DNA of 64,000 nt from Patescibacteria group bacterium. GTDB lineage: Bacteria > Patescibacteriota > Minisyncoccia > Phycocordibacterales > Phycocordibacteraceae. Below the pieces are notes generated by a model. That model made no database searches, had not been told where the DNA came from, and worked only from the letters and a program-made list of their open reading frames with translations. Positions 24,619-28,969 of this stretch are shown one piece after another (the first letter of the stretch is position 1; each line of letters begins with the position of its first letter). The stretch lies in NCBI GenBank assembly GCA_018826905.1, contig JAHJYC010000004.1, forward strand, positions 141,717-205,716, given 5' to 3'. Made by a program: the position numbers and the translations under genes.

Positions 24619-26088
24619 TTACGGAATGAAGGTAAGTGCTTTCCCTGTTGTTCCAGCGCGTCCTGTGCGACCAATACGGTGCGTATAGTCCTCGTATGTT
24701 GAAGGAAGATCGTAGTTGATCACGTGAGTAACACCAGAGATGTCTAGTCCACGAGCAGCAACATCTGTTGCTACAAGAACACGAACATCATTCTTTTTGA
24801 ATGCAATGAGTGCCTTCTGGCGCGCACTGTGTGTCTTGTTTCCGTGAATAGAATCTGCGCGAATACCTTGCTGACGAAGGTCTTTCGCCATTCGTTCAAC
24901 ACCGTGCTTGGTACGTCCAAAGACAAGTGCCTTTTCAAACTCAGGTTCTTTCAAGAGCTCAACAAGTCTGTCAAACTTCTGCGAGTGATGTACTTGCACA
25001 ACGTCTTGATCAATCGTATGCGAAGTCTCTCGTGTCTTCACTGAGACAGAAACAGGATCCTTAAGGAAGGCCCCGATAAGTGCCTGGATGTCGCGAGACA
25101 TTGTTGCAGAGAAGAAAAGTGTGTGACGTTCTGCACGCATCTTGCTAAGGATGAAACGCATGTCGTCAATGAATCCCATGTCTAGCATGCGGTCCGCCTC
25201 ATCAAGTACAACTGTACCGAAGTGAGTAAGGTCTAGATCGCGGCGCTCCATGAGGTCCTTTAGACGTCCTGGTGTTCCGATAACAAATGCAGGGTTACGC
25301 TTAAGAACGCGAATCTGAGGAACAATGTTTGCTCCCCCGACACACGTTACAGACGCAAGACCAAGTCCCTTCGCAAAGCCAAAGAACTCAGATTCAATCT
25401 GAATTGCGAGCTCGCGGGTTGGAACCATAACGAGCACACGCTCGTCGCTTCCAAGTGCACGGAACTTGAGCACTTTATCAATAAGAGGAATAAGGAATGC
25501 GGCTGTCTTTCCTGTTCCGGTGTTTGCAATACCTACAACATCCTTCCCAAGAAGAACGTGCGGGATTGATTGATCCTGAATTGGTGTTGGTGTGACGTAT
25601 CCCTTATTAGCAATATTTGCCTTGAGGCGTTCGTCTACTGCAAAGTCTGCGAACGCGTGAGTTGAGTTATATGCTTCAACTTCGCCTGCTGGCTGTGCTT
25701 TGTTTACGAGTTTTGAGAGATCAACAGCCATCTCTTGGTATCCACGTCCTCCACGAGTAGGGCGAGCGTTTTGTGAACGCTCTGGGCGTCCTGTTGGGCG
25801 TCCTCCTGTACTTGCGCGACGAGGTCCTCCACGAGAGCCTCCGCTTGAACGGCGCTGTTCAACAGCAGCGGTCATAGGACGCTTAAAGCCGTTTTCAAGC
25901 GCAAAGCGCATGCCTGCCTCGTATGCAGGGTTTGTTCTAGTATCGCGTCCTCCGAAACGAGAGCGCTGGGGTGCGTTCGTGCGGCGTGGGCCACGTGAAG
26001 AACGCGTATCTTTCTTTGTATCCATGTTGAATGCGTGAGCACGGGTCTGCCGTGCCTTGTAAATTATAAGGCGCCAAATATGGCTCAA
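24619..26088 (-). CDS. DEAD-box ATP-dependent RNA helicase carrying a ~130-aa Arg/Gly-rich N-terminal extension.
   Basis: The Q motif, Walker A (ANTGTGKT), PTRELA, DEAD (VLDEADRML), SAT, and HRIGRTGR motifs are all present. The N-terminus is RG-rich (RGGPRRASTGGRPTGRPERSQNARPTRGGRG). The true start may be an internal Met. Confidence 0.9.
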   Translation of the reverse strand: MSHIWRLIIYKARQTRAHAFNMDTKKDTRSSRGPRRTNAPQRSRFGGRDTRTNPAYEAGMRFALENGFKRPMTAAVEQRRSSGGSRGGPRRASTGGRPTGRPERSQNARPTRGGRGYQEMAVDLSKLVNKAQPAGEVEAYNSTHAFADFAVDERLKANIANKGYVTPTPIQDQSIPHVLLGKDVVGIANTGTGKTAAFLIPLIDKVLKFRALGSDERVLVMVPTRELAIQIESEFFGFAKGLGLASVTCVGGANIVPQIRVLKRNPAFVIGTPGRLKDLMERRDLDLTHFGTVVLDEADRMLDMGFIDDMRFILSKMRAERHTLFFSATMSRDIQALIGAFLKDPVSVSVKTRETSHTIDQDVVQVHHSQKFDRLVELLKEPEFEKALVFGRTKHGVERMAKDLRQQGIRADSIHGNKTHSARQKALIAFKKNDVRVLVATDVAARGLDISGVTHVINYDLPSTYEDYTHRIGRTGRAGTTGKALTFIP

Positions 26089-26243
26089 CCGTTCTCGAGA
26101 GTCTCAAGCGATGCGCGCTGGCGCGGTGCCTGGTCTTGAATTCTCTTCAAGACGGCGATCCGTGGAGCAACTGTTGTAAAAGTAGTATACCAGACGCTTG
26201 TATTTGCGCAAGTAGAGAAAGCGCCCGTTCTCCGGGCGCTTTC

Positions 26244-26420
26244 CTAACTTTTTCTGCCTGATCCTGACTTCTTTCCCCCTCCCGATTCCTTATTCACTGT
26301 TGCCCAGGCACGGGCCTCCGCTTCCTTTTCAGATACTCCCTTCTCCTTATATCCCTCTTCTATGTGTGCAGCCTGTCGCTTCTGCTTGTCTGTATAAGCT
26401 GACTTGTCTCCACGAGGCAT
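26244..26420 (-). CDS. Small hydrophilic Lys/Gly/Glu-rich protein of 58 aa (MPRGDKSAYTDKQKRQAAHIEEGYKEKGVSEKEAEARAWATVNKESGGGKKSGSGRKS); stress-protein-like.
   Basis: It begins 6 nt after the stop of the lmo0937-family ORF on the same strand. The 151-aa ORF-track version (26244..26699) is rejected because its upstream part overlaps the small TM ORF in another frame and is Cys/Pro-rich nonsense. Confidence 0.4.
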   Translation of the reverse strand: MPRGDKSAYTDKQKRQAAHIEEGYKEKGVSEKEAEARAWATVNKESGGGKKSGSGRKS

Positions 26421-26425
26421 ACACG

Positions 26426-26578
26426 TTACGCAACAGGATTCTTGCCCTGAATAAGGCGGATGAGCACCATGATTATTGCCACAACGAGAAGGAGATGCAG
26501 GAAGCCTCCAACTGTGTATGAGGTCACCAGGCCAACGAGCCAAAGCACCAAGAGGATTGCAGCTATTGTATAAAGCAT
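26426..26578 (-). CDS. lmo0937-family small membrane protein of 50 aa (MLYTIAAILLVLWLVGLVTSYTVGGFLHLLLVVAIIMVLIRLIQGKNPVA).
   Basis: Found by manual translation; it is below the ORF-track size cutoff. It matches the widespread lmo0937/DUF-type ~50-aa hydrophobic peptide (ILLVLWLLG...GGxIHxLLVIA...LIQGR). Confidence 0.55.
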   Translation of the reverse strand: MLYTIAAILLVLWLVGLVTSYTVGGFLHLLLVVAIIMVLIRLIQGKNPVA

Positions 26579-26705
26579 GACTATATTTGCTTACTAGTAA
26601 GTAGTGCCCTAATACTACAGACGCGAGCATAAAGACTTGGTGAAGGGAGGAAGATACAAAAAGGAATGGAGGAGGAAGGGTGTGGACACCAACCCCCATC
26701 CAATG

Positions 26706-27071
26706 TTATTTGAATTCAATCAGAATTCTGTTGCTCTGCTTGATCAGGTCGATGAACTTGTGACGGCCCGTCATCACCTCCTCGTGCCATAGGTCTCCGA
26801 AGAGTTCCTCCATTTGGCCGAGGATGTGCTCGTCGTCCAGGTCCAGCTCGTGCGAATTGCGGACAAGCAACTGCACAATGGCTCTGGTCCCTTGATCTGC
26901 TTCTGAGTAATGCAGATCGTATTTGTCATCAAGCATATTAACGAAAGTGAACTTCCGAATTCTCAGTTCGTTTTCCTGAAAGGGGTACTGAATGCCGAGC
27001 TCTTCGGCAACGCCAGCAACCCGCCCTAGGAATTGTTCGTTAGCCTCAAGCATGACACTTGTTCCTTTCAA
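26706..27071 (-). CDS. Hypothetical acidic protein; no recognisable domain.
   Basis: 121-aa ORF lying between terminator hairpins with coding-like composition. Confidence 0.4.
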   Translation of the reverse strand: MKGTSVMLEANEQFLGRVAGVAEELGIQYPFQENELRIRKFTFVNMLDDKYDLHYSEADQGTRAIVQLLVRNSHELDLDDEHILGQMEELFGDLWHEEVMTGRHKFIDLIKQSNRILIEFK

Positions 27072-27157
27072 ACTATTTGGGTGAGGTCTTCCCCACTCCT
27101 TTTTGTATCCATACTTTCAAAGAGCATGAGTACCCTACCAAATGGATTCTGAAACGC

Positions 27158-27186
27158 AAAACGCCTCCTGAAGGAGGCGTTTTGTT
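27158..27186. terminator. Bidirectional intrinsic terminator AAAACGCCUCC-UUCA-GGAGGCGUUUU downstream of typA.
   Basis: A perfect 11-bp stem including the A and T tracts on both sides; it overlaps the typA stop codon. Confidence 0.65.
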
Positions 27187-28969
27187 AGCGACGTGCTTTT
27201 GCTCTATCGCTGTCAGTGAGGTGTTGCTTACGCAAACGAACGTTATCAGGAGTTATCTCCAAATACTCGTCTTCACTCATAACTTCAAGTCCGCGCTCAA
27301 TAGTAAGCGTGTATGGAGGGAAGAGGTTAATTGCCTCATCATTTCCAGAAGAACGAACGTTTGTAAGGTTCTTGCCCTTTGTTGGGTTTGAGGTCATCTC
27401 CTCTCCCTTTGAAGTGTTTCCAATAACCATACCTTCATAGACTTCTGTTGCAGGAGAGATGTACAGAATACCGCGCTCCTGAAGTCCCCAGAGGGCGTAG
27501 CCAAGCGCCTTCCCTGTTGCCATTGAAATCATTGATCCAACCTGACGCTTCTTGATTTCTCCAGCGTATGGCTTAAAGCCGAGTACTCGTGAAGAAAGAA
27601 TTCCTTCTCCCTTTGTATCAATAACAAACTGGCTACGGTATCCGAGAAGTCCGCGAGTCGGGCCCTCAAGAGTAAGACGTACGATATCGCCATCTTGCGT
27701 AAGGTTCTGGAGCACAAAGCTACGAGTACCGAGGCGCTCAATAATAGCTCCCTGGTATTCGCTTGGAGTATCAATAATAACCTCCTCATAAGGCTCCATC
27801 TTCACTCCCTCTTCCTCACGAACGATTACTTGTGGCTGAGAGACTTGCATTTCGTATCCTGCACGACGCATGTTCTCAAGCAAAATAGCGATGTGGAGCT
27901 CTCCACGTCCAGACACCTTGAATGAATCAGGAGAAACAAAGTCCACCTTTAGACCTACGTTCACTTCAAGTTCTCGCTCAAGATACTCACGAAGCTGGCG
28001 ACTAGTTACATACTTTCCTTCACGTCCAGCAAACGGAGAGTTGTTAACAAGGAAATTTAGAGTGATGGTCGGCTCATCAATCGCAATTGCTGGAAGTGGT
28101 TCAGCTGCAGGATCTGTTGTAACAGTTTCTCCAATGAAGATATCTGAAAGACCAGCAATGATAACAATATCTCCTGCCTGGGCTTCTGTAGCTTCCACAC
28201 GCTCAAGACCCTTAAAGCTAAACATCTTCGTTAGCTTTCCGGTGCGAGTTGAACCATCTGGTTTCTTAACGATAACGTTGTCAGTTGATTTAACTATTCC
28301 CTCGTACACGCGAGCAATCGCGAGACGGCCTAGGAAGTTGTCGTACGCTAGGTTAAATGCCTGAAGACGAAGTGGCTTTTCAACCTGCTCTGATGTTCCA
28401 GCTACAGGAACGAGTTCCAAGATTGTGTCTAGGAGCGGAGTAAGGTCTTTTCGTTCGTCGTTAATTCCCTTCATCGCAACACCCTCGCGTCCAATAGCGT
28501 ATACGGTGGTGAAGTCAGCCTGCTCGTCTGATGCTCCGAGCTCCAAAAAGAGTTCAAGTACCTGCTCCTCTGCACGATCTGGATCTGCTGCAGGCTTATC
28601 TATTTTGTTGAGGACCACAATTGGCTTAAGGCCAAGCTCCAAAGATTTCTTAAGTACAAAACGTGTCTGAGGCATTGGGCCTTCCTGAGCATCAACAATA
28701 AGAAGCACTGAATCAATAGAACGGAGTACACGCTCAACTTCTGAACCGAAATCGGCGTGCCCTGGAGTGTCTACGATATTGATCTTAGTTCCCTTGTATT
28801 CAACAGCTGCATTCTTTGAGTAGATGGTAATACCACGCTCCTGCTCAATGGAGTTGCTGTCCATTGATACACCCTCAGCAGCAGCACCTGTCTGCTTCAG
28901 AATGGCGTCTGTAAGTGTCGTCTTCCCGTGATCCACGTGGGCAATAATGGCGATATTCCTGATTTCCAT
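27185..28969 (-). CDS. typA: Translational GTPase TypA/BipA.
   Basis: 594 aa with [17 protein letters not shown], and a TypA-specific C-terminal domain. Confidence 0.95.

Follow-up and report, generated by a model that had tools for sequence, protein, structure and literature searches.

We analysed a 64,000-nt stretch of contig JAHJYC010000004.1 from a Patescibacteria group bacterium (GenBank assembly GCA_018826905.1), hereafter called the window, and describe within it two small adjacent genes, one encoding a 50-aa membrane protein of the lmo0937 family and the other a 58-aa hydrophilic protein (Table 1). Read along the minus strand, the lmo0937-type open reading frame (ORF) ends in TAA (26428..26426) and is followed by the spacer, an ATG (26420..26418), 58 codons, TAG and a hairpin. 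A list of the longest ORFs shows a single 151-aa ORF over the same interval. From Met94 onwards, the C-terminal third of this ORF corresponds to the 58-aa peptide (MPRGDKSAYTDKQKRQAAHIEEGYKEKGVSEKEAEARAWATVNKESGGGKKSGSGRKS), while the first 93 residues of the ORF overlap the 50-aa frame out of frame.

Table 1. Features at and around the two small genes, in window coordinates
Feature	Position	Strand	Description
bipA/typA	27185..28969	minus
121-aa hypothetical ORF	26706..27071	minus	between bipA and the two-gene unit
Two-gene unit		minus	between bipA/typA plus the 121-aa hypothetical ORF and the DEAD-box helicase gene
151-aa ORF, almost certainly an artefact	26244..26699	minus	58-aa frame left open upstream across the lmo0937 gene
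Upstream motif CTTCA-N21-22-GTAnnnT	26612..26645	minus	here CTTCACCAAGTCTTTATGCTCGCGTCTGTAGTAT; ends ~33 nt 5' of the lmo0937 ATG
Perfect 12-bp palindrome	26590..26601		CTTACTAGTAAG; between motif and start codon, 11 nt 5' of the lmo0937 ATG
50-aa lmo0937-family/DUF5670 gene	26426..26578 (including stop)	minus	from matches to hidden Markov models (HMMs) and GenBank identity
Spacer	26421..26425	minus	CGTGT, 5 nt, read from the sequence
58-aa hydrophilic protein gene	26244..26420 (including stop)	minus	core residues 1-46 and basic Gly/Lys/Ser tail 47-58
Terminator-like hairpin	26217..26243	minus	GAAAGCGCCCGG-AGAAC-GGGCGCUUUC; first base directly 3' of the stop of the 58-aa gene
Helicase leader region	26026..26216	minus	leader of ~170 nt
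DEAD-box helicase gene	24619..26025	minus

The two small genes and the 151-aa reading frame

An earlier reading of the bare sequence, here called the first-pass annotation, had proposed two tandem small genes instead of one 151-aa gene, and family matches, homologues and coding-type divergence all bear this out. It had also written out the sequence of the 50-aa product, and the ORF list contains exactly the same sequence at 26426..26578. The coordinates that it assigned to the two genes stand, with the amendment that both genes read right to left, on the minus strand.

The 50-aa product is a bona fide member of the lmo0937/DUF5670 family, the identity first suggested for it. It matches the full length of the NCBIfam model NF033488 (lmo0937 family membrane protein; 58.5 bits against a cut-off of 30, E = 4.9e-16, model positions 1-43 of 43) as well as PF18919 (DUF5670; 53.6 bits against a cut-off of 23.5), exceeding both curated cut-offs, and is identical to GenBank MBU1293037.1, which is named 'lmo0937 family membrane protein'. 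A large protein collection holds 2460 homologues, the closest of which are 74-94% identical and nearly all exactly 50 aa long. Residues W13, G16, S20, Y21, T22, G24, G25 and H28 are invariant in an alignment of 33 homologues, and hydrophobic stretches at residues 2-19 and 26-40 of the window protein lie either side of SYTVGG. Compared with seven relatives, the gene shows 78-92% amino-acid and 69-79% nucleotide identity. We know of no lmo0937/DUF5670 member with a known biochemical function, and a literature search found no paper on DUF5670.

The second gene encodes the Lys/Gly/Glu-rich peptide that had been described at 26244..26420, and this peptide is real, conserved and hydrophilic. Its start lies where it had been placed, 6 nt after the stop of the first gene, the ATG beginning at the 6th base past the TAA. 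The product is identical to GenBank MBU1293036.1, deposited as 'hypothetical protein KJ819_03170'. Across its 46 core codons, the window gene shares on average 80% protein and 69% DNA identity with 80 genome homologues from at least eight other phyla, and 61% of the conserved core codons are synonymously different. Conservation of both small ORFs in relatives had been put forward as a check on the two-gene proposal, and the result is of the coding type: 35-69% of conserved codons differ synonymously from the relatives. Both small ORFs are protein-coding and under purifying selection.

The opposite reading takes the 151-aa ORF as the true gene and the 50-aa ORF as a frame that overlaps it by chance. 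The 151-aa ORF is the longest ORF at the locus and was called by one gene caller, its product being recorded only as Logan gene call P0122; furthermore, 81 of 137 representatives of the 58-aa family in a 50%-identity library also start upstream of the conserved methionine. However, residues 1-93 of the 151-aa ORF have no family match in Pfam or NCBIfam, and they overlap the very frame whose product matches NF033488 at 58.5 bits. The conserved Met of MPRGDKS is the protein start in 79 of the 80 genomic homologues; the in-frame sequence 5' of it differs from locus to locus, is unrelated, and is often interrupted by a stop within a few codons. The homologues thus do not continue in the 151-aa frame; had they done so, the two-gene proposal would have been refuted on the terms set for it. 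The N-terminal extensions in other family records are mutually non-homologous, as expected of over-called starts, and the Prokaryotic Genome Annotation Pipeline (PGAP) calls two small genes. Since the N-terminal 93 residues match nothing and homologues start at the conserved Met, we regard the 151-aa ORF as an over-extension. The reading of it as a gene is extremely improbable and already effectively refuted; the two small genes are almost certainly real and the 151-aa ORF almost certainly not a gene.

It had further been suggested that such genes are missed by annotation. This holds for the longest-ORF track and for some metagenome gene callers, as Logan P0122 illustrates, but not for GenBank, where an exact look-up found both proteins, annotated by PGAP, for four metagenome-assembled genomes (MAGs) of the Patescibacteria group.

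The proposed transcription unit and its occurrence in relatives

All Paceibacterota lmo0937 loci that were fetched (L001/2, L083-L092, L120 and L129) contain the motif CTTCA-N21-22-GTAnnnT at -64..-31 relative to the ATG, and it is kept in L092 despite a different gene neighbourhood there. Among the other ~160 loci there are two matches, and the 64-kb window contains two compared to 0.91 expected, the second lying by chance inside metK. Apart from the motif, the intergenic region is not conserved in relatives. These patterns make the motif a candidate gene-specific promoter or regulatory site of the two-gene unit. The significance of the palindrome between motif and start codon is doubtful, as it is not conserved in relatives.

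The two genes are separated by 5 nt in the window and by 3, 10 or 11 nt in the relatives that carry the pair, a spacing consistent with co-transcription. The hairpin that follows has an 11-12-bp, G+C-rich stem (-26.9 kcal/mol, z = -6.1 against shuffles) and was also picked by a terminator scan, though its minus-strand U-tract is weak. A strong hairpin stands 3' of whichever gene is last, namely the 58-aa gene in L083 and L129 and the lmo0937 gene in L086 and L089. Taken together, co-transcription of the two genes is likely. A scan of 25900..27300 against Rfam gave no family match; a Phe_leader candidate at 27080..27187 on the plus strand, upstream of bipA and opposite to it, was sub-threshold (27.2 bits against a gathering score of 55, E = 0.054) and was set aside as most likely due to chance.

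The order bipA-(hypothetical)-lmo0937-DEAD is kept in relatives, and within this synteny the 58-aa gene is present in the window, L083-85, L120 and L129. In L083-85, where the 50-aa protein is 92% identical, a 59-aa homologue of the second gene lies 3 nt downstream of lmo0937. The loci L086-L091, with a 50-aa protein of 84% identity, are without the 58-aa gene, and the lmo0937 stop runs straight into the hairpin. Beyond these, the second gene was found in 2 of 80 further metagenome lmo0937 loci, L120 (11-nt spacer) and L129 (10-nt spacer), both of the same Paceibacterota type. Approached from the other gene, 80 genome loci of the 58-aa family contained no lmo0937-like ORF within 3 kb, using phmmer and an HMM from 120 homologues with filters off, and no hydrophobic small ORF within 500 nt. 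Nor was there a shared partner family among the 150 nearest neighbours of the 58-aa family, the commonest Pfam domain occurring in 5 of the 150. The first-pass annotation had spoken of a small stress-associated peptide pair. As a pair, the two genes occur only in a few close relatives within one Paceibacterota subclade; they make up no conserved or recurrent module, and the lmo0937 gene and the 58-aa gene are not an obligate functional pair.

The 121-aa ORF between bipA and the unit has no match in Pfam (taken from precomputed annotation), NCBIfam, PADLOC or PHROGs. Its GenBank length is 76 aa in one MAG but 121 aa in a second; L083 and L084 carry a version of 117 aa, and L086-L089 lack it. 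From its variable presence, the bipA-to-helicase interval behaves as a small variable islet.

A different upstream arrangement was observed in a non-Patescibacteria clade of the lmo0937 family whose proteins end in ...RLISGRG. Here the palindrome GTACG-N4-CGTAC is conserved in 11 metagenome loci (those listed are L104, L106-L109, L113, L136, L140, L145, L152, L156 and L161), ~86-101 nt upstream of the ATG (153 nt in L107). Most of these loci also contain (G)ATACTG ~20 nt further on and a CACGGC...GCCG hairpin. The arrangement looks like an operator, promoter and leader specific to the lmo0937-family gene.

The 58-aa family: constraint, predicted fold and stress context

The 58-aa protein had no match in Pfam or NCBIfam (E<=1), PADLOC or PHROGs, and a PDB sequence search with it found none. 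Its family is very large: more than 8000 homologous 90%-identity clusters were found, with E down to 1e-25, a count that is a lower bound because the search saturated. A filter-free search of a 50%-identity library gave 1669 clusters, 837 of them with E<=1e-10. The family occurs in at least nine phyla; our 80 genome loci come from Alpha-, Beta- and Gammaproteobacteria, Acidobacteriota, Chloroflexota, Planctomycetota, Verrucomicrobiota, Ignavibacteria, Gemmatimonadota and Myxococcota. It is defined by a 46-aa core with the pattern MPRGDKSxYTDKQKRxAEHIEEGY..RGVS..EAERRAWATVNK, in which the N-terminal MPxGDK..YT is invariant. The consensus over the 80 genomic homologues is MPrGDKs.YTDKQKRqAeHIEegYe.rGvs..EAErRAWATVNK, followed by GGGxKSGSGR and a variable tail.

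The window protein is the minimal form of the family, with the tail GGGKKSGSGRKS (net charge +4) and an overall composition of 13.8% Gly, net charge +5 and grand average of hydropathy (GRAVY) -1.54. Across the family, the median tail is 44 aa long, and the median net charge of the tails is +7. About one third of the representatives carry [KR]xGG-like motifs in the tail, many proteobacterial members carry SASAKKAAATRKR, Xanthomonadaceae members have long, histone-H1-like KKA/AKK repeats, and a Rho_N domain (PF07498, 27 bits) forms the C-terminal end of one Pseudomonas member. A 95-aa, long-tailed second gene was observed in the Paceibacterota-type locus L129 (L129:878-1165), with a tail ending in KSPAKKGGAKGGKAAARRSPAKKSAKTRAKKKSS; tail length is therefore variable even inside the subclade that bears the pair. 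The Acinetobacter baumannii record NZ_CP104448.1 contains an unannotated, divergent homologue, MSRGDKSSYTAKQKRQAKHIVESEVDRGHSQEEAERIAWSTVNKQDGGGKKK..., at 63% identity (L175:2501-2701). This 4.09-Mb record is filed as a plasmid in PLSDB and is evidently a misfiled chromosome; the homologue lies outside the katE/dtpA/dtpB desiccation cluster.

The similarity of the core between phyla could in principle reflect recent horizontal transfer. We rejected this source because synonymous sites are heavily diverged and the G+C content at third codon positions (GC3) is host-like, at 0.46 for the 58-aa gene compared to 0.42-0.64 for its neighbours. The window gene is no closer to its syntenic counterpart in L083 (87% amino-acid, 78% nucleotide identity) than to a Nevskiaceae gene (85% and 77%). 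Synonymous divergence together with host GC3 indicates that a small folded domain is held under very strong purifying selection, and that this accounts for the cross-phylum likeness. It is chiefly this selection that makes us suspect a specific, conserved partner for the 58-aa protein, which we consider possible but doubtful.

AlphaFold2, run with a 28-sequence alignment, predicted two helices in the 58-aa protein (residues 11-26 and 31-46) with a mean predicted local distance difference test (pLDDT) of 79.9; pLDDT exceeded 90 over residues 11-40, and the last ~12 residues were of low confidence. ChaB and RMF are small two-helix proteins and look-alikes of the 58-aa protein, but neither identity was upheld. 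ChaB (PF06150) gave no Pfam match, an hhalign probability of 1.3% over 19 columns against the E. coli protein, and was absent from the fold-search matches, while RMF (PF04957) gave an hhalign probability of 0.13% and neither a BLASTP alignment nor a Pfam match.

The composition of the protein raises the alternative that it is a disordered hydrophilin of the KGG/YciG/GsiB or DtpA-like type, acting as a non-specific desiccation or osmotic protectant, and that its adjacency to lmo0937 is coincidental. Hydrophilins are operationally defined by Gly >6%, high hydrophilicity and disorder, and the Gly content and GRAVY given above fall within the compositional part of this definition. The [KR]xGG-like tail motifs and a general-stress regulatory context also speak for the alternative, and bacterial hydrophilins do protect against desiccation (review PMC13552118). 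Against it, the core is predicted to be folded with high confidence, and ~80% identity across at least nine phyla with an invariant MPxGDK..YT is atypical of disordered protectants. The sequences of such protectants drift. In addition, the A. baumannii homologue lies apart from the dtpAB cluster, and neither the window protein nor 10 long-tailed homologues matched PF10685 (KGG; YciG/GsiB) at E<=1, so we rejected KGG-repeat membership and regard the likeness as resemblance only. Overall, a purely protectant role with coincidental adjacency is unlikely.

Database labels raise another alternative. Family members are named 'plasmid stabilization (system) protein (ParE)' by the Joint Genome Institute (JGI) and PGAP, and others 'transcriptional regulator'. 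Homologues occur on 211 plasmid records, and in the window a small hydrophobic peptide adjoins a small hydrophilic protein, as would be expected of a toxin-antitoxin or plasmid-stabilisation module made of a hydrophobic membrane toxin and a ParE-labelled partner. However, the 58-aa protein has no ParE/RelE match in Pfam or NCBIfam at E<=1 and none in PADLOC, and its prediction is a helical hairpin with a tail, not the alpha/beta RelE fold; the 'transcriptional regulator' label likewise has no domain match and is incompatible with the predicted fold. Both labels are wrong, the former being a propagated misannotation. The plasmid records are mostly rhizobial megaplasmids or chromids on which the homologues have general-stress neighbours, and both genes have evolved slowly, in a vertical-type manner, and have a GC3 like that of the host. 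The pairing, moreover, is absent from all 80 diverse 58-aa-family loci and from 78 of the 80 lmo0937 loci, which together with the lack of a common neighbour argues against a toxin-antitoxin or any obligate two-component reading. We consider such a module highly improbable.

Evidence for a link to stress comes from homologues of each protein. Listeria lmo0937 is down in sigB and sigB/sigL mutants and with a sigma-B inhibitor, and is a target of the small RNA Rli51 (PMC7690807, PMC3225968, PMC11394854). For the 58-aa family, a strict EcfG-type motif (GGAAC-N16-17-CGTT) was found within 200 nt upstream at 17 of the 80 loci, compared to ~0.65 expected from a background of 0.008 per 200 nt; 15 of the 17 motifs lie 56-64 nt 5' of the ATG, and, going by record titles, 16 come from Alphaproteobacteria. 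When NGTT is allowed as the last box, the motif is present at ~23 of 32 alphaproteobacterial loci and also upstream of two plasmid copies, those of Rhizobium johnstonii 3841 pRL11 (RL_RS31330) and Agrobacterium fabrum C58 pAt, the latter unannotated in the PLSDB table. Both the motif and its position agree with the published EcfG consensus (PMC6599016). Upstream of lmo0937 homologues, the EcfG motif was found at none of 73 metagenome loci. To our knowledge, EcfG is confined to Alphaproteobacteria, and since the 58-aa family occurs in at least nine phyla, its regulation elsewhere must use other factors. Among the best matches of a literature search, no paper linked 'plasmid stabilization protein' with EcfG, and a Rhizobium etli EcfG paper had no matching locus; nor did we find a published regulon list that names the family.

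The neighbours of the 58-aa homologues fit this picture. A short-chain dehydrogenase/reductase of the PRK06701 subfamily lies within 3 kb at 10 of the 80 loci, in several phyla, and LigD, BON/OsmY-like and PhoH genes recur within the same distance, all of them genes typical of general stress or dormancy. In both Rhizobium plasmids the annotation places topoisomerase IB two to three genes away from the homologue, and a neighbour recurring in three loci is topoisomerase IB-like by eye, but no NCBIfam model matched it. The 'stress-associated' label of the two proteins is indirect, resting on sigma-B dependence in Listeria and EcfG-type promoters in Alphaproteobacteria; by analogy, we lean slightly towards stress-linked expression in the window organism.

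In three Acidobacteriota loci (L023:3202-4410, L032:2111-3298 and L044:3208-4479), an eRF1-like (baeRF) gene lies directly 3' of the 58-aa-family gene on the same strand. Against the 'Rv2629 family ribosome hibernation factor' model these genes scored below threshold, at 80 bits where the cut-off is 320, and PhoH and BON-domain genes are found near them, hinting at a translation or dormancy context.

Proposed explanation and comparison with known systems

The explanation that we favour, and consider likely as a whole, is that the locus is a two-gene transcription unit of real stress-type small proteins in a Patescibacteria genome of Paceibacterota type, that is, a lineage-specific operon in which two independently widespread proteins have come under one promoter and one terminator. 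In this operon, stress or growth arrest would induce the two genes together. The lmo0937 protein would insert into the cytoplasmic membrane as a small integral membrane protein, while the 58-aa protein would remain cytoplasmic, its two-helix hairpin docking to a conserved partner or dimerising, and its basic Gly/Lys/Ser tail contacting polyanions such as nucleic acid or the ribosome, or protecting in the manner of a hydrophilin. To account for the adjacency, one Paceibacterota subclade may have gained the 58-aa gene between lmo0937 and the terminator, or sister lineages may have lost it.

Several observations weigh against parts of this explanation. First, a promoter scan found no sigma-70-like promoter for the two-gene unit, the conserved upstream motif has no assigned sigma factor or regulator, and no Shine-Dalgarno sequence can be read before either ATG. 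Second, in the AlphaFold2 model of the 50-aa protein, residues 2-43 form a single uninterrupted helix (pLDDT 91.6) and not a hairpin. Third, as regards a partner or polyanion bound by the 58-aa protein, fold searches returned only generic helical hairpins, and the gene neighbours of the family are variable. Lastly, the case for stress regulation of the family rests on promoter motifs from another phylum, and our literature search found no paper describing the MPRGDKS family.

A broader proposal concerns the 58-aa protein itself, which might be an unrecognised, near-universal bacterial stress or dormancy factor. On this proposal, the ~80% identity would follow from the protein binding some universally conserved machine, be it the ribosome, RNA polymerase or the nucleoid, the basic tails with their KKA repeats and Rho_N domain would be nucleic-acid anchors, and the alphaproteobacterial members would belong to the EcfG regulon. 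We put this forward as speculation, with the odds against it. The 58-aa gene is kept in a reduced Patescibacteria genome, which suggests a function worth keeping even in minimal cells.

For the window, the result is mainly a correction, in which one spurious 151-aa ORF gives way to two small genes that are both already in GenBank. The first is an ordinary member of a named family and the second a deposited 'hypothetical protein' of a very large unnamed one. The main by-product of the analysis is the breadth, constraint and misannotation of the 58-aa family and its EcfG promoters. This family is among the larger small-protein families without a family model, its starts are often over-extended and its name is misleading; characterising it could give a function to thousands of database entries.

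Downstream of the unit, the helicase gene has its own leader, which follows a canonical-looking promoter, TTGCGC-N17-TGGTATACT. The leader contains the blocks CACAACGGTTnCTCCA and GAGAACGnTTGAG, which are conserved in L086 and L089 and have no Rfam match, and it may be a regulatory leader of the cold-shock type. The helicase probably starts at ATG 26025 (MDTKKD..., the 468-aa call in GenBank), not at TTG 26088 as the ORF tool has it. The motif upstream of lmo0937 differs from this canonical promoter (TTGCGC-N17-TATACT).

Compared with known systems, the first protein shares with the lmo0937 family its length, the whole-model match, W13, G16, SYT-GG and H28, whereas its gene is unusual in having a clade-specific CTTCA-N21-22-GTAnnnT motif and a second small gene before the terminator. 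With ParE/RelE toxins, the 58-aa family shares only the database label and small size, and it has no antitoxin partner or conserved neighbour. Its likeness to ChaB is a short local resemblance, E..A...AWA.VK, and that to RMF is KQKR...GY. With the PhyR-NepR-EcfG regulon, the alphaproteobacterial homologues share the promoter consensus, spaced as usual from the start codon, and sit among LigD, topoisomerase IB, BON, PRC-barrel and catalase genes; the window organism differs in being a Patescibacterium. Lastly, the family resembles hydrophilins and KGG proteins (E. coli YciG, Bacillus subtilis GsiB, and DtpA and DtpB of A. baumannii) in being small, hydrophilic and Gly/Lys-rich with basic flexible tails, which in many members bear KGG-like motifs, but it is defined by a highly conserved, predicted two-helix core instead of a degenerate repeat.

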